A DNA stretch of 63,237 bases, filler included, from Dugesia japonica (lineage: Eukaryota): NCBI GenBank assembly GCA_001938525.1. It is 6 parts of 6 records of this genome, joined end to end, with 100 filler letters (N's around TTAATTAATTAA, not from the genome) between each part and the next. Parts side by side here need not be neighbours in the genome. Positions count along the whole stretch, not along the records: positions 8,458 to 25,014 come from MQRL01624501.1; 5 more parts are not named here. One strand, given 5' to 3'. Positions 8,540 to 34,793 of this stretch are shown here, in pieces. Position 1 is the stretch's first letter. Each line of letters starts with the position of its first letter. The notes beneath the pieces were generated by a model, which saw only the letters and a program-made list of their open reading frames with translations, ran no database searches and was not told the DNA's origin. Both the position numbers and the translations under genes were made by a program.

Positions 8540-9137
8540 AAATTATTACTAAATCATTTTTCTATAGTGAATAAATTCAATGATGAGAAGATGTTAAAAT
8601 GAGATGTAGTGGCAGTGCAGCAACGGTGGAAGGAGGAGAAGCGCGATTTACACCATGAAATTCTACAATTGAAAGGACATCTGAATCGGTCCTCCTCGAA
8701 ATTCGCACAACTAAAGAGAAGAAGTTGGCTCTCCAGCAGGTCAACCGCCTTATGGCCGAGGTGATCAAGATCTATGCCGACCTTGAGGACACAATGTTCC
8801 ACACTCTGCGAACATTGTGGTTAAATTACCCATCACCAGAGGAGTCAACCGAAGCAATGTAACAAACCGTAGAACTGGACGCTTAGTAAATAAAGACGTA
8901 GCTGTTAATAATTGAATAAATATTATGAATTTTGATTGAGTCAGTTTGAATAATGAATTTTATTTGTTGAAGTAAAACTATAATATTAAATTTTTACTGA
9001 GTGTGTAAGAGTGATTGCTGTCAGGGTTCGTGGATTCTGTGAATAAGACGCGATACCACAATCTCGCGCTGAACCCGTGGAAAGGAGGGGCACCTCACAT
9101 AGGTGACGCAAACGCTTGAGGTCTTTAGGTTGCCACA
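8540..9137 (+). mobile_element. Related subfamily fragment: acceptor-led gene-B-like ORF, AATAAA and a terminus ending TGCCACA
   Basis: ctatag|tg acceptor near 8567; translation LHHEILQLK...AEVIKIYADLEDTMF; AATAAA at about 8889. The 3' segment ataagacgcgataccacaatctcgcg resembles 6460-6520 reversed. Confidence 0.5.
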
Positions 9138-10952
9138 GATCAGTCGATGAAATTTTAAATATGCAAACGAGATTGGAGAGAGAAGTGAATAAAATAAAAC
9201 ATCCAAATCCTAAAAACCCAACAAATCAAACAATCAAAAGATATATTCATCAAACACCTTGGACAATTTATATTGATTAACTTTGTTTTATATTTGGTGA
9301 TCATATTAATTCTGAAAATAATTATATCCATCTAATTTTATTTTATTATTCTACGAGCTATTAATTATTTCTTTTTTGGTTCAGCTGTTCTATTTAATTT
9401 TGTAAATAATATATTGAAGTTTAACTATATTCATAATTCTGTAAATAACAGTTATATATTTAATTTTATAAACATCATACTGAAGTTTTACTATATTTCA
9501 TATTTTCATTATATAGAATTCTGTAAATATTAAAATTTTATTTAAATTTTAAGAAAATTTTGATTTTGCATGTAAATATTTGTTTTTAATGAAATACTGT
9601 ATAAAGATTTTATTAATGAAGCAGTATAAATACCAATTACAATTATCAGTTTATCACACTTTTTTAAAAGCCTGTAAAACAGTTTGCTTTTTTATTAACA
9701 AAGAGAATAAAATATCCATGTTGGCACTGCAGAGTAGTGTAGTATCTTTGCAAACATATCATTCCAGCACAATGAGAAAAATGCTGTTAACAACATTCAT
9801 TTTCTGTTGTGATTATATGCGCTATCAATTTTCAAGGTTCACTACCCAATAAACAACTGTTGAATGTCTTTCATGAATTGGAAATGATAAAATGCACCAT
9901 ACTGCTTCATTGATACTAATTTAGCGTCTCAACTGATATTGGGGAATTTTATCGATGAATACAGTTGCGTTTTCCACTCTAAAAGCAACCACATTGCTTT
10001 CTTTGTAAGCATATTTACCAATCTACTTGATCAATTTCACCAAATGTCAATACAAGACATTGATGTATGCTTTGTATATTTTTTAGAGTAACTGTGTATA
10101 CGGTACAACCCACTGATTATTGACTTCAGCATCATAGTATCGTACTGTTAAATTGATGGTCGACAATAGAGTGGATATCCGCCAATGTCATTGATAGTCT
10201 TTGCAAGTAAGTCTCTTGAGTATCGTTTCGTGCAATTCCCAACAAACGTGCATGGTGAATTTCTGTTAAGTAAGTCACAGGGATCATGAATCATGATTTT
10301 GATGACAACTTGAAATAAGTTTTGATCAATGTCGTCATCTGTTATTTCTGCTAAGATAACTTGATCATTTTGATCTGGTGTGAATTTTTCGAACAACCGT
10401 ATTTAAATGTGTACATGTGGCAAACATTTTTTGCCATTCAATGAACTACAACAATATGATTCTCAAAAAACATAATGCTTGACTATGAAATCTATAAATG
10501 ATTTTAATTTTGGTTTGAACACCCGCGCGGAAATATTATGACGATCCGATGATAATTGTCCGGTTAACAAAAGTTCTTGTATTTAATCCCATGCAGGAAT
10601 GCATGTGAAGGTAATAAAAACAATTAAATGGCCATATACGCGAACATATGACAATACATTTTGTGCGTATTGATGCATATGCAGTTGACTCAATGTAAAT
10701 TTGGTCCGTAGTATTGTTGGGGTCCCACCTGAGTTGAATGAAGAAACGATGGCTGGGGAAAAGCAGCCCTCAGGGAAACCCTTTCAAGAATTTAGATCCA
10801 CCGCCCCAGGGTGGATTTTCAGTTTATGGTGGTTGACTTCGCTCTTAATGGGAGGTGCACACCCATAAACCTTTTAATTTGGGTTCATCATTTTCCCTTA
10901 TCTTATACCAACATTTAAATCAGTGACACTGGAAACATTTATTACAACAAAT

Positions 10953-11333
10953 TTACAACTCATCTAACACACTTGGGTCTAACCATTGGCCTGGATCTGT
11001 CGCTAAAAATCCGAAAGCTGCGACATCACCATTATCGTCCCAAGGGACCCAATCTGGGTTGCCAATATGGCGAGAAAGATCGGCGATATATTGCTTTAAA
11101 AAATCGATCTTTCTCATCAGCAACTGCTTGGTTTCGGCTTCCAATGCTTTAGTTTGGACCGCCCAGTTGCTTTGTTTGCGAACTATCAAATCTAGCTTTG
11201 TATAAGTTTGTCACGCTGGGCCAGGTGTCGCAGAAGGGCTCGGTCTGTTTTACGCTTTAGGTGACGTTCTAACAACAGCCGGCGCATGATGCAATGACAT
11301 CGGTGAAGACTGTTGAGGAAATGGATACGAGGC
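10953..11333 (-). pseudogene. Element gene A: orphan basic coiled-coil protein with acidic/aromatic tail (one frameshift)
   Basis: tttcag|TG CCT CGT ATC gives PRIHF..RRLLLERHLKRKTDRALL..KLDLIVRKQ..KIDFLKQYIADL..WDDNGD; homologs at 24507-24862 and 29681-30005. Confidence 0.7.
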
Positions 11334-11456
11334 ACTGAAAGAAATTAGATTAATATATCGGTAATTAACAGCGAAACTCAGATAAACAATAGGATAAGAA
11401 GTCTGAACTCATATAACCATTGAAGAATAGATTTATTTATAGAAATTAAAACAGAT

Positions 11457-11810
11457 TAAGTCCGGGGGGTTTGAGTACCCTTCTCGATCATCAATGACTC
11501 GAGAGGTATCTTTTCCCGGAGCAGTAAGATGTCGGTAACCAGTTTATTTTCTCGGTCATGGCTGGACCGGATAATTTCCGAAAAAGATTCAACCTGCTTC
11601 TTCCAGGCTCGTTCCTGCAGGTGTGAGGCTTCAGCTTACTTTTTGAAAGCGAGGCATTTCTTCCTATATCTAGCCACTTTACTATTGGCCGTTGCCATCT
11701 CTGCCTACGACGTTTGGCCAACTTATACAGATCCCAGGTGAGATCAAGATATTCACTGGTTTCTCGCAGCTTTTTATTTGGAGCCTGCGATTTGATCAGG
11801 GAGGAATGCA
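11457..11810 (-). pseudogene. Element gene B: orphan coiled-coil protein ending KGTQTPRT
   Basis: tttcag|tg acceptor; the conserved frame is SHLQERAWKKQVESFSEIIRSSHDRENKLVTDILLLREKIPLESLMIEKGTQTPRT*, with a homolog at 29340-29570. Confidence 0.65.
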
Positions 11811-11970
11811 CTGAAATATCATTTTTTATTAATTACGAAGAAAAACCAAAATCAGACAACAACTTAAAGTTACTGGAAACCGGAGTTTATCTTAATCTAT
11901 ACGTAAAGATATAATATAATTGAACTCTAAACAAGACATCTATTTATTCGTATTCTAAAACAAACAACAT

Positions 11971-12328
11971 TCATTGGTGATTAATGTTAGCGTCAATATT
12001 GGGTGCTGTATTTTCACTATCGGTCACTCCGGTTGGCTCCCTAACCCCCCGAGAGAAGGTTAGAGATAAAAGCCTGTACCGCGGGAGCTGGGGGTGGCAT
12101 TGCAAGCTGATATTGGAAGGGTGACGCAAGGGTGCGACCAGGACCTGTCCAAGTTTGATACTGTTGTCGCTCTCCAAAATCCCGTATCCGGGCGACGATA
12201 GACTCAACCGGGGGTAGGTTGGACCTGTCGGCCAAAATACCCGCGTCACGGTTGTGCGGGTTGTGGTGTCGCCGGAAAATTACCCGACGGGTTCATCTAT
12301 CTACTATCCGTTCCCATATATACTCCAT
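11971..12328 (-). pseudogene. Element gene C: GC-rich, Pro/Arg-rich orphan ORF
   Basis: ttttag|atATG acceptor; MEYIWERIVDR*TRRVIFRRH...MPPPAPAV...TAPNIDANINHQ*; AATAAA at about 11943-11948; one stop and one frameshift. Confidence 0.45.
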
Positions 12329-12424
12329 ATCTAAAACATGAAAAGAAAATAGTAAAACTTGACTAAAACAGCTTGAATAAGTAAAGACAATTTATATATA
12401 TGGTCATGACAACATTACAACGAC

Positions 12425-12652
12425 TTATGACAGAGTCTCTTTGGCAATGCAGTGTGGACAAGACAAAAAGCACTCCTCACCTAAATCCACTTTGCTGACC
12501 TGGGGGAACATTACTGCGAGACAGCATAGGTCAGTTTCATCTGGATGCTCAACTCCCCATTTCGTCAGTAAGTGAGCTATCAACTGTTTTGTTCGGGCGA
12601 TTTGGCGCTGCTGTTTTATCCAACGTAGCGTGTGACTCAATTCCGTTGGCAT
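12425..12652 (-). CDS. Element gene D: 75-aa Cys-rich orphan protein (CC...C..CPHC)
   Basis: Intact ORF with ATG 3 nt after a tctag| acceptor; a 42-nt candidate intron (12697-12656) lies upstream; IAHLLTKW resembles IADLLSRY at about 23010. Confidence 0.5.
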   Translation of the reverse strand: MPTELSHTLRWIKQQRQIARTKQLIAHLLTKWGVEHPDETDLCCLAVMFPQVSKVDLGEECFLSCPHCIAKETLS

Positions 12653-15031
12653 GAGCTAGAGAATGGAAAATATCAATCACAGTATATAATTCCTGACTTA
12701 GTCCTCTGAACAATTGGTCGTCACGGACTGTTATAGAGGGAAAATAATAATTAAGGGGGCGAGGTTAATTAAGTTCGTAGCCCCTTGTTAGGGAAATAAT
12801 AATAGCCATAACATAGTAATAATAGGTGTTACAATACGACTAGCAGTGAAAATGAAATTAATTTGGAAATAATACGAATAATCAACATAATGCACGAAGA
12901 TATAATGATTTTATTGGTAATAGTACGGTTAATAGTAATTATACAAGCAATCATAATCCGAGCTACTAATACATCCACAAATTTGCAGTTACTAATTAAA
13001 CCCCTAATAATATTAATTGAGACACAATTGATCTGGGTACGCCACTAATCACCATAATTATGATCATCGCACTATCCGTTATAATATTACCATTAATATT
13101 AATAGTAATCATGATGATGATGATGATGATAATAAATAAAATTAACCTAGATAATAATTATGAAAGCAATTTTATAATAGTAATTATAATAAGATCAATA
13201 TTTCTGATATTGATAATGTTGCTAGCAATAATATTATTTTATAAAATTCCGGCTGTTTGTAAAATTTCGTCTATGAGCTCAATTCTGAACTTTGAAAAAT
13301 CCCGCTGTTTAGGGTTGCCTAGTAACGATGATTATTTTCTGCTACTATCGGAATACACGCTGAAAAGTTTATGTGTGTGTTACCACTCGGTTAATTTAAC
13401 TGCAGAATAAATTTCTGGTATTTTCGTCATCACATGCAGCCACGCAGACATGATTGGGTTGGAAAAAAAATTTTGATACATGTGTGCGACTGAATGATAC
13501 TCATAAAATATTCGAATTGCTTTTTGGATCATCGGATCATGTGGTTACTAATAAATTTATTTAACGAATAAAGTTGCCTTTTTTAATGATTTNNNNNNNN
13601 NNNNNNNNNNNNNNNNNNNNNNNNNNNNNNNNNNNNNNNNNNNNTTTATTTCATTTTATTTAAACATATAACCATACTTACTATCAAAAATATTTGGCTA
13701 AGAATTTCTGCAACGGGTTATCTATTCCTCGCACAATGTTTGGAATTTATGATCGATTTTCGGATTGCTGATAACTTCAACTGATCAAAACGATTTTTTA
13801 AAATTAATTTATACTTCTGAATAAGTTAATTACTGTGTACGATACCTCCGATAGCTAATGCGCGATAACTGATTGTCTTTGGGTTTCTTTATGGATATTG
13901 ATAAATTTGCAGTTAAAATTTTCTTTACGGATTAAAGAATGAAATAAATTTTTTTAGTGGTTTAAAATGGTGTGTTTCTTAAGTTTTTTTTAAATCAGGG
14001 GTCCTTTTATAGGATTTTCTTTACACCCCAACTCCGTTGGTATTGGCCAGTTATTTTTAATTTAAAATAACNTGTTTACATTGGCTCCGATACTACCTTT
14101 CTGGAATTTTGCAAACTTTTCTGCAATTCCGTTGGTAGGTATTTTTGGATAATCATGCGAGCTTTTGTTCTTTGTTCTATTTTTATTTTTAGATCTCCTA
14201 TTGGTCCGATCTTGGGGATCCTGCAGCAGCCCTCTGGAAGGTGGTAAGTTTTCCTTCTTAGTAATTTCAACTGCATCTTGATATTTTCTTTCTGTATTTT
14301 CTTATCCTGCTTCTTTCCGATTTCCCTTAGCGAAGTTATTCAGATAAAACGAATTTTTTGTTAATTTCGCTTCTTTTTTTATTTAAAATTAATTAATATT
14401 TTTCGTCTGTTAATTGATTCTTTTCATACCGATTTTCTTGGTTTTTATTATTATTTAATAATTTTTCTTAATTCCGATACTGGTATAGGTTGTTTTAGGA
14501 CACTTAGTTTATTGACCCCATCTTCGATGTTATTTTATTCCTCTTTACAGATTATTTCCGTTACATTCTTTCCAAATTATAATCGCTTTCTTCTTTTGAA
14601 TTTCATACAAGTAAATTTACAGGTTCTATTTTTCTTCTTTGCCGATTCTGAATTTTTTGTCTTATTATCGTTCTTCCCGAGTGTTTCACCCCAACAGTAT
14701 GAAAATTTTTATAATTCGTTGAGATTCATATTTTCATCATTAACAACTGCATTACATAAATGAATGCACTCTTCGGAACACAACTTGGTTTTGATTTTCG
14801 CAAACATGTATTGATGGAATAATGTTCGACATGTTCAGACAAAAATTTCAGATTTTTCACAAATCATCGATCGATATGAATAGTGTTTCATGGCATTGAC
14901 TTTCATATTCGTTTCCTCGTTTGTGGATTTCTCATTATGATGTTGGAATGATATTCAACTTCTCCTTACCAAAATAAAACTGGATATTGCAATCCGTCGT
15001 ATGAGCAATGAATCTTTGAGATTCTTTGAAC

Positions 15032-19146: not shown

Positions 19147-21639
19147 ATGGGCGACAGAGATAATTATAAAGTAGATATTGATATTGTTAAATATTACCAG
19201 TCATCCTTGAAATCGTATCAAAATGCTTCTGATAATGATAAATGTAGTTTAGCCATTAATTTTAGTTTGTCATATTAATTATTTTAAGATGATGAAGCTC
19301 TAAAAACTGTCGCATCTTTGAATAAGAATGGAATTAAAGTATGTTATCACACGTCAATATGTAAAATAATGGAACAATTTGTTAAAGATTTCCCTACTGG
19401 TGAGATAGTGGGATGTTTATTTAGATCTATAAATGCTTACTTGGANGGAGTTATTATTGGGAAAAATACTTCTCGACTTTTGGAAAAAGTACTCTTAGCA
19501 TGTCAGTCTAAAGATATAGCTCAAGATGATATAGTCCAATTTCAAAGCGAGAAATTCTGTGAATATATGTGGATTCATTATCCTGATAATCTAGAGAATA
19601 ATATCGGATCACATATAGTTAGAATGTTTTTTCAATTTGTTTGTGGCGTTTATGTGGGTATGGAGGGAATGGTTTATTCATCAAAATCAGTTGTCATTAG
19701 TAAACCCATGCAAAGTAACTACAAAGAAAAATTAGAAGATTTAATCAAACGATTTTTAATGAATCCTCAAATTAATTTATTAATTACTAACGAATATATG
19801 AGTTCTACTTTACAAATAATACTGGTTATTTGTTCTGTTCGTTGCCCGGAAAAATACGATGAAGTAGTTAAGCATTTAATGTATATTCTTTGTTGCATAG
19901 AAGATAAGGTTTCCAGTAAAAATTCTGATTTAATTAAGTAAGTTATATATCTATTTTTGTGATAAAATATATCGAGTCTTANTTTTTTCAATGAAAATAA
20001 ATAATATTGATGATATAAAGAGTTTAAAAATGTTTCCATTAAATTAATAATTAAATTTTTTCTAATTATAAATGAATAGTCCATAAATAACATTACAAAG
20101 CTTTAACTTAACCTCATCATATAATGTCTAACTCACTCAATATAATTTCTGTAATCAGGAAAATGTCCCTAAGAAAAAGAAGGACATTTCCTTGTATCTT
20201 TTACTAAGTAGTGATAAAAAGGTTTAATACGCGACAAAATTAATATTTAAACGTGGCAGTGCAGTTGAATTTCAATCCGAAACTNNNNNNNNNNNNNNNN
20301 NNNNNNNNNNNNNNNNNNNNNNNNNNNNNNNNNNNNNNNNNNNNNNNNNNNNNNNNNNNNNNNNNNNNNNNNNNNNNNNNNNNNNNNNNNNNNNNNNNNN
20401 NNNNNNNNNAAGCGATAAATCTAATAAAAAACAAAATCATTTCCCCAGAAAACCAGACAAAATAAGCATTTATCATTTTGACAGTTTACAGTATTTCATT
20501 CTCTTAAATTTTGTGACATTATGTAAGTACGCCATCTAATAATTTTATTCCTAGAATTCCAGAAAGTTTCCGCGACAAATATCAAAGTTTCTTTTTGGAA
20601 TGTTTAATTTACAATCTCGAAGATGGAATTCATTGGAAACGATTTGTCAAAAAGTATTTGAATTTAGGAAAAGAAAAGTTTATTGCCGATATATTTGAAA
20701 ATTCGAATTCTTGTGGATTATTTCGGTCAGCAATAATGCGTCTAACCTCCACTAAATTACTCTTGGAAATTATACAACAAGTCAAGTCTACCTTGTTTGA
20801 AATCAAGAATTTTCAGTGTGGAAATGTATTTTTGAAACTAATCATTGAATTTGTCAATAAAATTGTGCTTTTTACCGATGAAGAACAATCTGAATTACGA
20901 ACATATAAAAATTCAATTATTGAAGTATTTATTGAATTATTATGTTTTTTGGATAAATTTTAACTATTAGATTGTGCAATTTTTATCGAAAGATGATATG
21001 GGTGCAAATTCTTTAGTAAAATTTCTTGGTAATGGGTTAAATTTTCAAAATACTGAAGAAGACCGAGAAGAACAAGACGAAGAGAATTTCATTGAACATG
21101 AAAAGGTTTGCTCAGTTTGGTCTTCTCTTTTAATGCAAGCCATTTTAAAACGTTTTAAACCGATTCCTAAATCGATAAATAATTTATTTATCGGCACAAA
21201 AAGCGAAGAAATCGTTCAGTTGTGCTCTAATTCAAAAGCAAGTCGATTAATCGAAACATTTATCGATTCAGGAAATAATAATGTTCCCGATAATGTAAAA
21301 ATTCGATTTTTCGATTTGTTGAGTGCAGAAGAATTGTTGGAGATTGCATGTTCCAAGTTTGGAAGTCGAGTTATGGATTGCATTTATTTGTGTTGTCAAA
21401 ATAATCAATTATTCACAATTATCAAATCGAAATTAGAGTCGAAAAGAAATGAAATGAAACAACATAATATTGGAAAATATGTCGAATCGAAATTTTTCGG
21501 TTATATTCCCAAACTAAAAGGTAAAATAATGAAAAAATCGAAAGATAATGAAACGCAAAAGGTGGTTAATCAGAAACGGTCGGCACAAGTAAATGAAGTG
21601 AAAAATGGTTCACATTCGAAAAAACAGAAAATAAAATAA
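19147..21639 (+). CDS. NOP9: Nucleolar protein 9 (PUF/Pumilio-like repeat), multi-exon
   Basis: Exons about 19147-19243, 19289-19937, 20555-20924 and 20971-21639; extra exon(s) may lie in the N gap. PUF-like motifs GSHIVRMFF, ASRLIETFI and LEIACSKFGSRVMDCIY; lysine-rich tail. Confidence 0.8.
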
Positions 21640-24231: not shown

Positions 24232-25014
24232 TGTTGGGGTTCTACCTGAGTCGGAAAAGTGACTGGGGAAAAAACAGTCCTCAGGGGAACCCTTTCAAGA
24301 ATTTAACCCTACCGTCCCTTTGGTAGGTTTTCAGTTTATTGTGGTTGACTTTACCCTTGATGGAAGGTGCGCGCCAATAAACCTTTTGTTCGGGTTCTAT
24401 ATATTTTCCCTACTGTTTATGTCGTGATAATTAAANATCTTTGTTATTCTAAGCAGAACATTTATTTAATAACAACACATTTATAATAAATCCAAGGCTT
24501 CTGGATCTAGCCATGGTCAGGGGTAGTGGTGATGAAATTAAACATCGCTATATCGTCATCCNNNNNNNNNNNNNNNNNNNNNNNNNNNNNNNNNNNNNNN
24601 NNNNNNNNNNNNNNNTATTGTTTCAAGAATTCCACCTTACGTTGCAGCAAGAGTTTGTTTTCCTCCTCCAACGCTTTAGTTTGGGTTGCTAAGTCTGATT
24701 GGTTCTTCACGACAAGATCGAGTTTTTTAATTAATCGATCGCGTTGATCGAAGTGTTTTAATAAGGCCTTATCCACTTTTCTCTTTAAATGTCGTTTGAT
24801 GAGGAGACGGCGCAAGAGGCGATGACAACGCCTTAAACTAGTGGGGAATTGAATTCTAGGCACTGAAATAACAAGAATATTAGACAAGCATATGATAAAA
24901 ATAAGTCATTCGCTTATTAGTGAAAATCACAAAACAAAACAATCAAGTAATGAATAAAATAGATTTTTAGATTTACACAAAATTAAGGATGGAGATTGTT
25001 TTTAGTTTGTGTAC
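24232..25014 (-). mobile_element. Partial copy of the multi-ORF element (terminus, gene A, tail of gene B)
   Basis: TGTTGGGGT at 24232 with clear similarity to 10715-10910; gene A ORF 24507-24862; (G)TQTKNNLHP* at 25014-24983. Confidence 0.85.
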
Positions 25015-28789: not shown

Positions 28790-30252
28790 CGTTTAATTAA
28801 TTTTCATTTTTCAGGGAGGAGCCTTTGGGATCACTATAATCATCGTTACCTTTATAAAATCTGGATTATTTCTGTTAACCCAATTTTTTAATCCGCGATT
28901 TCCATCCCCTCGTCTGTTTGTGTAACTAAGTTTAATAAATATTCTTTTAGTGAATTCAAGCTCAAACATGACGACCAGCTGGAAATTGTACAAGCTTGAT
29001 GATGGTACCAAAAGAGACAAACCGGTCACCAACCTGTTGAATGTCTGCATAGGCATTTTGGTAGACAATTCGAATATGCCCTTCAAAGAACATGCGGCTA
29101 AATGTCATCAGACCAACTGGGAGAGATCCATGGCCCAAAATTGGCGCTCAGGATACGTGAAGTTTACGGATCCTCACAGTCCCCACAAGCTTGGTTTAGC
29201 GCGGTTTACGAGCCTAATCCCTCGAACAAGCGGTATACCTATTGACTAAACGCGACAAATACAAGTGTTTGATTAATAAATGTTCGTTCATTTATTTATT
29301 CTTATTCTCGATTTCCTTTTGTTCACGTTTCCATTTAATGAGAAAGCGAAAAACCAAAACTACAAAAGTGGTGTCGGGAATAACGAGTTGAGGCCGAACT
29401 TTCCCATTTGCAGGAGAGAGTTTGGAAGGCTCAACTAGAGTCATTTGCAGAAACGCCCAGTTGGCTTCTTGAAAGAGAAAATAAGCTGGTCAATAATGTA
29501 ATGACACTACGCAAACGAATCCCACTCGAGCCGTTGTTAATCGATAAGGCCACCCAAACTCATAACTAACCTTACTCTGTGTTTTATGTGAATATATTTT
29601 CTCTTTGCTAAAACTTAAATTATTGAGTTTATTAAAAGTCTAACTGTTTTATTATCTTTTCTAACTATCGTTTAATTTAGTGCCTCGTATTCAATGCCTA
29701 AGAAGTTTGAAACGCTACCACAAGTTGTCGCGCAGTCTGCATTATGCCAAAAAATTTAAATATACACTTTTCCAAACACACTCAAAACAAATCGACTCAT
29801 CAAAAAGATAGAGACGGTGTCCAAGAAACAACTGGACATCGAAAACCAAATTGCCAACAGGTTTTTCAATAAGGTAAACTTTTTGACACAGTATACCGCC
29901 GATTTAACGGCGCAACAAAGTATTGCAACCTTAGAACCTTGAAATATTGACGACGACGATGCCGAGTTGAACTTTTTTGATGACAGGCCAGCAAACTGGG
30001 AATAAGTTTAATATTGTATATCTTATAAATAAATCCTGGTTAGCATTATACCGTTTAGTCTTCTCTATTATATTAAAAGGGGAATAACGAACCCAAGCCA
30101 AAGGGGTGCGAGTCTGTACTCTAACTACGGGTTGACAGTCAACGGCTCCATTCCGAAAGCCTAATTAAGGGAAATTATGTAAATTCTTCGCGGAGTTCCA
30201 CTGAGGACTGATTCCCAAGTCACAATTTTCTAGCATCCAACTGACCCCAACA
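28790..30252 (+). mobile_element. Partial copy of the multi-ORF element (5'-truncated; acceptor-led ORFs, genes B and A, terminus)
   Basis: ttttag|tg acceptor at 28950 and atttag|tg at 29680; gene B ends DKATQTHN*; gene A starts PRIQ; the copy ends gaccccaaca at 30252. Confidence 0.85.
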
Positions 30253-32961: not shown

Positions 32962-33467
32962 TTTAGTTGATATTTAAAGTCTTTAATATTATTGTTGCAA
33001 CTTTTATGCAACTATAACAAATCAAATACAATTATAACAAGGACAATAAAAAAAAATGTTCAAAAATTAGATTGAAGTCTAGAAAAAAATATAATACATT
33101 ACATAAAAGTCAATAAAAATATTTGAAGTTACTAGAAGTTGAAAAAAGGTTTTAAAAATTTTTCATAAATTTTCTGGATGTCAATAAAGTTTTTAGAGTT
33201 TCATATAAAAAGCGAATAAGTTTTCATTTAGAAACATATTCTGGTAACTTATTCGATTTATGAGTTCAAACTCATCCAAAATCCAACAAAGTGTGTGTGT
33301 TTTACCTTTTCAATGATGTTAGTTGTTTGAATATTTAAATTACCATATAATTGCTACTTACATGTATACTATAACAAAGAAAATACAAGTTAACATTGGA
33401 AATGCAACAGAGATGCAATAGAATTGCCAGTTAAACAAAGAAATTAGCAATGAAGATTTATTAAAAT

Positions 33468-34793
33468 AAAGGATAAATCAGTACAAAGGATAAATTAATG
33501 CAAAGGATAAATCAGTACAAAAGATAAATCGTTACAAAGGATAAATCAAAACAAAGGATAAATCGGTACAAAGGATAAATTAGTACAAAGGATAAATCAG
33601 TACAAAGAATAAATTAGTACAAAGGATAAATTAGTGCAAAGGATAAATCGTTACAAAAGATAAATCAATACAAAGGATAAATCGGTAAAAAGGATAAATT
33701 AGTACAAAGGATAAACCAGTACAAAGGATATATCGGTAGAAAGGATAAATCAGTACAAAGGATAAATAAGTACAAAGGATAAATCAGTACAAAGGATAAA
33801 TTAGTGCAAAGGATAAATCGTTACAAAGGATAAATCAATACAAAGGATAAATCGGTACAAAAGATAAATTAGTACAAAGGATAAATCGGTACAAAGGAAA
33901 AATCGGTACAAAAGATAAATCAGTACAAAGGATAAATTAGTGCAAAGGATAAATTAGTGCAAAGGATAAATCGTTACAAAGGATAAATCAATACAAAGGA
34001 CAAATCGGTACAAAGGATAAATAAGTACAAAGGATAAATCAGTACAAAGGATAAATTAGTGCAAAGGATAAATCGTTACAAAGAATAAATCAATACAAAG
34101 GATAAATCGGTACAAAGGATAAATTAGTAAAAAGGATAAATCGGTACAAAGGATAAATCGGTACAAAGGATAAATCAGTACAAAGGATAAATTAGTGCAA
34201 AGGATAAACCAGTATAAAGGATAAATCGGTACAAAGGATAAATCAGTACAAAGGATAAATTAGTTCAAAGGATAAATCAGTACAAAGGATAAATTAATGC
34301 AAAGGATAAATCAGTACAAAGGATAAATAAGTGCAGAGGGTAAATCAGTACAAAGGATAAATTATTGCAAAGGATAAATTAATGCAAAGGATAAATTAAT
34401 GCAGAGGATAAATTAGTGCAAAGGATAAATAAGTGCAAAGGATAAATTAGTGCAAAAGATAAATAAATGCAGAGAATAAATTAGTGCAAAAGATAAATCA
34501 GTAAAAAGGATAAATCAGTACAAAGGATAAATCAGTACAAAGGATAAATTAATGCAAAAGATAAATTAATGCAGAGGATAAATTAATGCAGAAGATAAAT
34601 TAATGCAAAGGATAAATTTATGCAGAGGATAAATTAGTGCAAAGTATAAATAAGTGCAAAGGATAAATTAGTGCAAAAGATAAATAAATGCAGAAGATAA
34701 ATTAATGCAAAGGATAATATAGTGCAAAGGATAAATCAGTAGAAAGGATAAATTAATGCAAAGGATAAATTAGTGCAAAGGATAAATTAGTGC
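33468..34793. repeat. 17-bp minisatellite (AAAGGATAAAT + variable hexamer), about 78 units, truncated by the contig end
   Basis: Direct reading of tandem units: aaaggataaat followed by cagtac, tagtgc, cgttac, caatac, cggtac or taatgc. Confidence 0.97.

Follow-up and report, generated by a model that had tools for sequence, protein, structure and literature searches.

A shared leader spliced to four genes within the long terminal repeat of a Burro-type gypsy element of Dugesia japonica, as recorded by intron-less copies

Start codons assembled over a splice junction are known from the env gene of Drosophila gypsy (PMC2585583) and from env in the springer subclade (bioRxiv 10.1101/2023.08.03.551782), and foamy viruses carry their major splice donor within the long terminal repeat (LTR), ahead of the poly(A) signal (PMC3694450). 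In the Drosophila MDG1 group two small accessory open reading frames (ORFs), sORF1 and sORF2, lie ahead of gag, and alternative polyadenylation gives a short transcript (PMC11952523). In planarians, Burro or GYPSM1 elements are giant gypsy-like elements found in thousands of copies and with long LTRs (PMC6431247). Here we describe a solo LTR, derived from a gypsy element of the Burro type, in a 63,237-nucleotide stretch of the Dugesia japonica assembly GCA_001938525.1 (six parts with filler between them; referred to as the window). It contains four genes, designated A to D, and a leader donor that is joined to the acceptors of all four in intron-less LTR copies elsewhere in the genome.

Each likeness to the described systems is partial. 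The gypsy env start is split AT/G (a slash marks a splice boundary throughout) and serves a single gene in the internal region, whereas here the split is A/TG and one donor serves four genes, all within the LTR. The available text on foamy viruses (Retroviridae) describes no gene cassette past the donor within the LTR (PMC3694450). The MDG1 sORFs, compared by description only, are unspliced, with no shared spliced leader or split start described in the available text (PMC11952523). The available part of the Burro account covers polyprotein domains and an upstream accessory ORF, and there mentions no intra-LTR genes, spliced leader or split starts (PMC6431247). The literature searched, which lay outside Grohme et al. 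2018 and its supplements, where LTR ORFs are possibly treated, yielded no account of genes spliced within Burro LTRs; the accessible portions of PMC8532177, PMC11410931, PMC4402516, PMC3383448 and PMC5408687 hold nothing on them. While a splice-made AUG is itself already known from gypsy env, an A-ending leader for four intra-LTR genes and fixed intron-less LTRs were not found in that literature.

Very probably, a leader that lacks ATG and has A as its last base is spliced to one or another of the four LTR genes, and joining of this A to the TG that opens the exons of A and B forms their likely start codon. Confidence is greater than this for the splices and smaller for translation from the junction ATG. 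A first-pass annotation of the window had proposed a shared leader for these ORFs and an ATG created by joining A to TG. The intron-less copies bear out cis-splicing of an A-ending leader to all four genes and the ATG so created for A and B, while the exon proposed as that leader, ending at 12698, did not stand. The features are listed in Table 1.

Table 1. Features of the LTR at 10715..14696 and of related copies in the window.
Feature	Position	Strand	Basis and remarks
Solo LTR, 3,982 bp, Burro-type gypsy element	10715..14696	(-)	Terminal sequences and flanking ATAC; identical ends joined elsewhere to primer site or polypurine tract
Target-site duplication, ATAC	14697..14700 (5' side); 10711-10714 (3' copy)	(-)	
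U3-like promoter region, CCAAT boxes and TATAAAA at ~14005-14011	13985..14696	(-)	TATA context kept across copies
Shared ATG-free leader exon, last base A, conserved CCCGTTGCAG motif at 13708-13717	13682..13985	(-)	0 ATG in this copy
Major splice donor A/GTAAGT at 13681; AATAAA 21 and 31 nt downstream	13676..13681	(-)	Alignment, census, spliced copies
Candidate donor of the first-pass annotation, A/GTCAGG	12692..12698	(-)	One subfamily group only; used by 0 of the spliced copies found
Gene D, ~60 aa; acceptor 12655, own ATG 12652	12428..12655	(-)	This copy runs beyond the usual end; spliced copies L303, L304; pN/pS 0.24
Gene C, ~118 aa; acceptor 12330, own ATG 12328	11971..12330	(-)	Internal stop and frame break here; spliced copy L214; pN/pS 0.25
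Gene B, ~118 aa; exon opens TG, ATG by splicing	11456..11810	(-)	Frame break here; spliced copies L290, L293, L295, L296
Gene A, ~125 aa, one long helix predicted; exon opens TG, ATG by splicing	10953..11334	(-)	Frame break here; acceptor backed by spliced copies L143, L219, L221, L223, L273, L274, L275
Poly(A) signal of A (10943) and terminal LTR part	10715..10943	(-)	
Second copy: gene A (AG/TG at 24862) and LTR end	24232..24862	(-)	
Third, distant copy: C-like ORF (AG/TG 28951), 5'-truncated B (29342-29560), A (AG/TG 29681), LTR end 30252	28951..30252	(+)	
Second LTR family: last gene and LTR end, AG/TG design	8568..9230	(+)	

Intron-less copies and the shared splice donor

Fourteen LTR loci in the genome lack exactly the intron from a 13681-type donor to the acceptor of A (7 loci), B (4), C (1) or D (2). 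They represent ~11 lineages, and all 14 join at this type of donor, from which the introns to the four acceptors measure 1.0 to 2.3 kb. Spliced copies were sought by patterns that combine the leader motif with the beginning of a gene, with yields of 6 among 24 matches, 4 among 15 fetched of 19, 2 among 5 and, for one further pattern, 1 among 7; two spliced A copies (L274 and L275) were added by a separate leader search. L273, L274 and L275 seem to belong to a single spliced lineage that has multiplied. At the 11 intron-less A and B loci the junction reads ATG in 10, the other (L275) having a later point change. L231 resembled a spliced B copy at first and was found not to be one.

Sister searches with the leaders of five spliced copies gave matches that end at the junction, where the unspliced sisters continue with GT. 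L219 reads ATATTTA then TGCCTCG, while L253 and L255, unspliced sisters of L143 and L219, read ATATTTA then GTAAGC. Likewise, L295 reads TTATTA then TGCATTC and its sisters L376-L385 read TTATTA then GTAAGT, and L214 reads TTAGAAA then ATATGGAG at the place where five sisters (L248, L262, L264-266) show GTAAG. L281 and L283, with GT after the same leader end, are unspliced sisters of L273 and L275. GT is present at the junction in 10/11 fetched sisters of L295 and in 7/11 of those of L304, two having GT with an incomplete GTAAG.

DNA deletion at the microhomology AGT, common to donor and acceptor, was rejected as a source of these loci because it would give AGTG and the copies show ATG. L223 is an entire 1,634-bp LTR (U3, leader, A and end) that is bordered on either side by ATAC. 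In L275 a spliced LTR remains joined to the primer site. Because U3 and the terminal LTR part are retained in the spliced copies, we infer that the intron-less LTRs arose via the element's own reverse transcription and not by poly(A)-tailed retrocopying.

The donor has A/GT in 25/25 aligned rows. A motif-anchored census of donors in the genome returned 535 matches, against 2 with a control pattern, and A precedes the donor GT in 98 of the 100 matches listed, while position -2 and neighbouring bases vary. As background, 16 of the 41 GTRAGT sites across the whole window have A at -1. The CCCGTTGCAGAAA motif at 13708-13717 (-) is kept 15-35 nt ahead of the donor in the otherwise unalignable leaders of the census matches, and may serve as an enhancer of splicing, as a Myb-type site or as a reverse-transcription signal.

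The first-pass annotation had instead placed the shared leader in a short exon behind a local promoter, the ctataac near 12735 (given there as ~12736), with the donor A/GTCAGG (12698/12697) lying 42 nt from D. The ctataac is present, and the window and close copies do have both A/GT and the 42-nt spacing. However, when checked for conservation the 12697 motif was present in 11/41 copies, the 14 spliced loci all use the other donor, and the TATA conserved across copies is that at ~14010. This local exon is therefore largely refuted as the shared leader, a role that is now highly unlikely for it, though it could be a minor subfamily donor. Between the 13681 donor and D, an Ile/Asn-rich (ATT/AAT) stretch at 12900-13410 has hydrophobic frames on both strands, and no codon-phase signal was found in it (487/442/463, with frames uncorrected).

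Start codons and coding constraint

AG/TG is found ahead of A in 48 of 64 unique copies, with 5 in the spliced form and 11 other, and ahead of B in 31 of 44 (4 spliced, 9 other). The base preceding AG in A and B copies is always C or T, and the T-rich DNA upstream diverges. The T-rich AG/TG acceptors annotated earlier at 11810, 24862, 29681, 28951 and 8568 are all present, that of A being at 11334, one position from the 11333 first given. In C and D an own ATG lies 0-4 nt past AG in 27/36 and 37/43 copies, respectively, in agreement with those already placed 2 nt past 12330 (C) and 3 nt past 12655 (D); the variable spacing implies that the upstream exon is non-coding. Gene C in 4 distant copies has AG/TG at the exact codon where near-subfamily copies have ATG.

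Coding constraint was estimated from copy pairs 10-25% apart, which are non-independent, as pN/pS, the ratio of non-synonymous to synonymous differences per site. Values in A were 0.22 over codons 1-15 and 0.25 over the remainder, those in B were 0.24 over codons 1-30 and 0.22 over the remainder, and C and D similarly gave 0.25 and 0.24. In both A and B, the codons directly after TG are under purifying selection. No early ATG of B is found in more than 18 of 58 copies. Given constraint from the first codons and no common internal ATG, coding starts at TG and the junction supplies the only common ATG, which is thus the likely start codon of A and B.

The leaders are themselves depleted of ATG. 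Among 37 TATA contexts, 25 have a usable donor and no gap, and these 25 leaders hold 10 ATG where 119 are expected; 7 of the 10 fall in one row whose first GTRAG probably is not the donor. As controls, other trimers of A, T and G number 78-133 and U3 holds 140 ATG. Depletion over the whole leader is expected under ribosome scanning, and argues against an alternative raised in the first-pass annotation, in which spliced leader (SL) trans-splicing gives a start at each acceptor. SL trans-splicing exists in planarians according to the available text of PMC12582326, and the serial acceptors look operon-like. However, flatworm leaders end in AUG (stated there for parasitic flatworms), and AUG joined to TG would not match the reading frame of the conserved ORF, since the conserved frame of A and B opens 2 nt past AG. 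The spliced copies, moreover, carry the element's own leader, and trans-splicing is considered very improbable.

AATAAA occurs no more than 100 nt from the ORF end in 41/49 copies of A, 36/51 of B, 25/31 of C and 25/43 of D, with reverse-strand controls of 9, 16, 3 and 6, respectively. The signals had been reported to follow several ORFs, which holds for A, B and C and at a frequency above that of the reverse strand. Their position behind each ORF suggests single-gene mRNAs.

In cis-splicing from the A-ending leader, transcription would begin ~30 nt past the TATA, near 13985, and each splice would produce a short mRNA for one gene, terminated at the AATAAA that follows it. The junction ATG would be used as the first AUG met by a scanning ribosome, and the split start would bind A and B to splicing, so that neither would be made from unspliced genomic RNA. 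Shorter LTRs would arise by reverse transcription of spliced RNAs that extend as far as the primer site.

Several points weigh against this arrangement. All four genes are decayed in the LTR copy at 10715..14696. The sister comparison covers no sisters of L221, L290, L293, L296 or L303, and L233, the sole sister of L223 with the same leader end, has T at -1, leaving that pair ambiguous. The first internal ATG of A, Met codon 16, is present in 36/78 copies, and in four distant A copies (L047, L052, L048 and L038) AG is followed by TC, TT or TA and not by TG; these are candidates for a near-cognate start or for decay, and the rule that A joins TG may fail in some lineages. RNA mapping for the junctions, a check proposed with the first-pass annotation, found no junction-spanning read in the 6-25% of each of runs X12, X13 and X16 that was examined.

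The two observations on gene A, together with the in-frame GTG within AG/TG, also favour a rival explanation that accepts the splices and has A and B start at an internal ATG or at the unspliced GTG, the junction ATG being incidental. Against this, A is at -1 in nearly all of the donors listed, the first 15 codons of A and first 30 of B are as constrained as the rest, the alternation of C and T ahead of AG is acceptor-like, and C swaps ATG with AG/TG at one codon. A start of this kind is judged unlikely, and the junction ATG is preferred.

Partial matches in X12, X13 and X16 numbered 12, 140 and 27. None covers the donor or acceptors; all come from distant relatives and are confined to short stretches at 10755-10794, 11538-11575 and 14140-14176. 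Contigs of runs X9, X10, X11 and X20, which are presumed to be RNA and may be DNA, gave 0 donor-to-acceptor joints among the 15 listed of 21, and some contigs run unspliced across the donor (X9) or across acceptor A (X11 and X20). Drops in read depth at the acceptors were dismissed as a sign of splicing, as the same drops occur in DNA run X1.

The LTR and its parent element

The LTR runs from TGTTGGGGT (14696) to ACCCCAACA (10715), and ATAC abuts both ends. LTR ends of the TG...CA form carry a 9-bp inverted repeat, and 4-bp target duplications flank 5/5 units for which both ends were recovered. A search of the genome gave 46 matches at 75-95% identity (40 scored of 8,261 candidates), and exact patterns located at least 4,015 3' ends and at least 6,519 5' ends in the assembly. 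Many copies are inserted within tracts of (ATT)n or (AT)n, and one LTR is nested inside another at a CATG duplication (L058 and L029).

A primer site complementary to tRNA-Pro-like ends lies 7 nt past the LTR 3' end, as a flank shared by 6 of the 100 3' ends listed, and 207 such junctions were found in total. A polypurine tract, in the form of one of two purine-rich flanks, precedes 8 of the 100 5' ends listed. Earlier patterns had returned 22 unrelated flanks for the primer site (0-4 nt gap) and 0 matches for the polypurine tract, and no common internal sequence was found in an all-against-all comparison of 45 downstream and 24 upstream LTR flanks. In L401 (G000:C378538:153-218) the junction of LTR and primer site is lengthened by a copy of the greater part of the primer tRNA, with a TGG anticodon; ARAGORN found no whole tRNA in six loci.

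On two contigs (L345 and L350) gene A is followed in turn by the LTR end, the primer site and gag. Behind the primer site, L345 has Pfam matches to zf-CCHC (E 3e-8) and, weakly, to Retrotrans_gag. Natural frames of LTR-linked and related contigs match the fusion-glycoprotein env PF24664 (E 2.5e-19 to 1e-77), and L337 has the order Bcl-2-like, fusion glycoprotein, protease. Matches to SUMO-like PF11976 (E 0.0025) and Bcl-2-like PF00452 (E 0.0009-0.0046) are under the curated cut-offs and in the order described for Burro. RVT_1 and RNase H are found in L341, on a contig that also has the primer site (L342), and the integrase signal is weak (rve_3, E 0.0017, L350). The likeness to Burro/GYPSM1, as given in the available part of PMC6431247, thus extends over a CCHC Gag, env between a Bcl-2-like region and protease, reverse transcriptase and RNase H, as well as the long LTRs and the thousands of copies, with the weak SUMO- and Bcl-2-like matches as possible further parallels. 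For the BIR, ankyrin and MATH domains of Burro, no match was seen at E<=0.01 in the 32 broken frames scanned, which cover less than the whole element.

The LTR ends, target duplication, tRNA-Pro primer site, polypurine tract, adjoining gag/env polyprotein and Burro domain order identify the unit as a solo LTR from an env-bearing gypsy element of the Burro type, where likeness to Burro is by the described domains and their order. A self-contained DNA transposon (Ginger-like, with TGT ends and a 4-bp duplication) would fit the finding that most copies have unrelated DNA on both flanks. However, the primer-site junctions, the polypurine tract ahead of 5' ends and the gag and env frames behind the primer site are features of an LTR element, and intron loss requires an RNA step; a DNA transposon is refuted by the primer-site and gag junctions.

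The LTR at 10715..14696 appears to be a mosaic. All 10 copies with a U3 at least 83% identical to its own stop aligning 7-49 nt past the TATA, and the 15 copies with an alignable leader have a U3 only 69-81% identical. The exchange point is near the presumed transcription start, matching the prediction for first-strand transfer. The cassette genes lie in R or U5.

In the LTR elements compared here accessory genes are internal, whereas in this case four selected genes, the donor, acceptors and poly(A) signals are intra-LTR and downstream of the promoter. A broader reading, held tentatively and at somewhat less than even confidence, is that the LTR is an alternatively spliced multi-gene operon in which the invariant leader A acts as a universal half start codon, such that any downstream AG/TG becomes an expressible gene. 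The LTR could then gain or swap accessory genes, each of the thousands of solo LTRs would be a self-contained unit expressing viral accessory proteins, and reverse transcription of spliced RNA would give heritable short-LTR proviruses that drop genes in order. Solo LTRs, commonly seen as inert promoters, would retain a full expression cassette. Gene finders that depend on ATG overlook A and B, and intron-less LTRs provide a genomic record of splicing from which a transcript map can be read without RNA. The system offers handles on how a giant planarian provirus may balance splicing, poly(A) choice and full-length RNA.

Predicted products and other copies in the window

An accessory or regulatory role in the element is most likely for the proteins encoded by A to D. 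None has a Pfam match above cut-off or any match in NCBIfam, and no solved structure was found. A is predicted to be a coiled coil, AlphaFold giving one long helix; no homologue was identified among 41 candidates, and the ESM Atlas gave a weak TRAF-type lead (0.77-0.80). The C profile recovered one 94-aa relative, P0001 (E 7e-9), on a 512-bp contig, which probably places gene C beyond this assembly or in a distant lineage. Two repeat proteins matched by the same profile were treated as spurious. C had no match in the ESM Atlas, and its AlphaFold model is of low confidence (predicted local distance difference test, pLDDT, 56).

The 28951 ORF of the third copy, first annotated as B-like, instead shows a weak likeness to C (39-45% over 31-38 aa), with an in-frame ATG 5 codons past TG. 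Ahead of it, at 28815-28925 (+), an acceptor-like site precedes a short hydrophobic frame that may be a fifth gene of the cassette.

The 8568 ORF had also been called B-like, and has no tblastn match to B at E<=1e-3. It is the final gene in a second family of LTRs (L356-L374), which ends AAACCCAACA and has a similar tRNA-Pro primer site in L356; this gene keeps AG/TG in 14/18 rows. A 5' end of an LTR of the first family (8528, minus strand) is inserted directly upstream of it. Elsewhere in the window are a NOP9-like PUF host gene at 19288-21639 (+) (Pfam PF22493) and a tandem array of ~75 copies of 17-nt units at 33292-34600.

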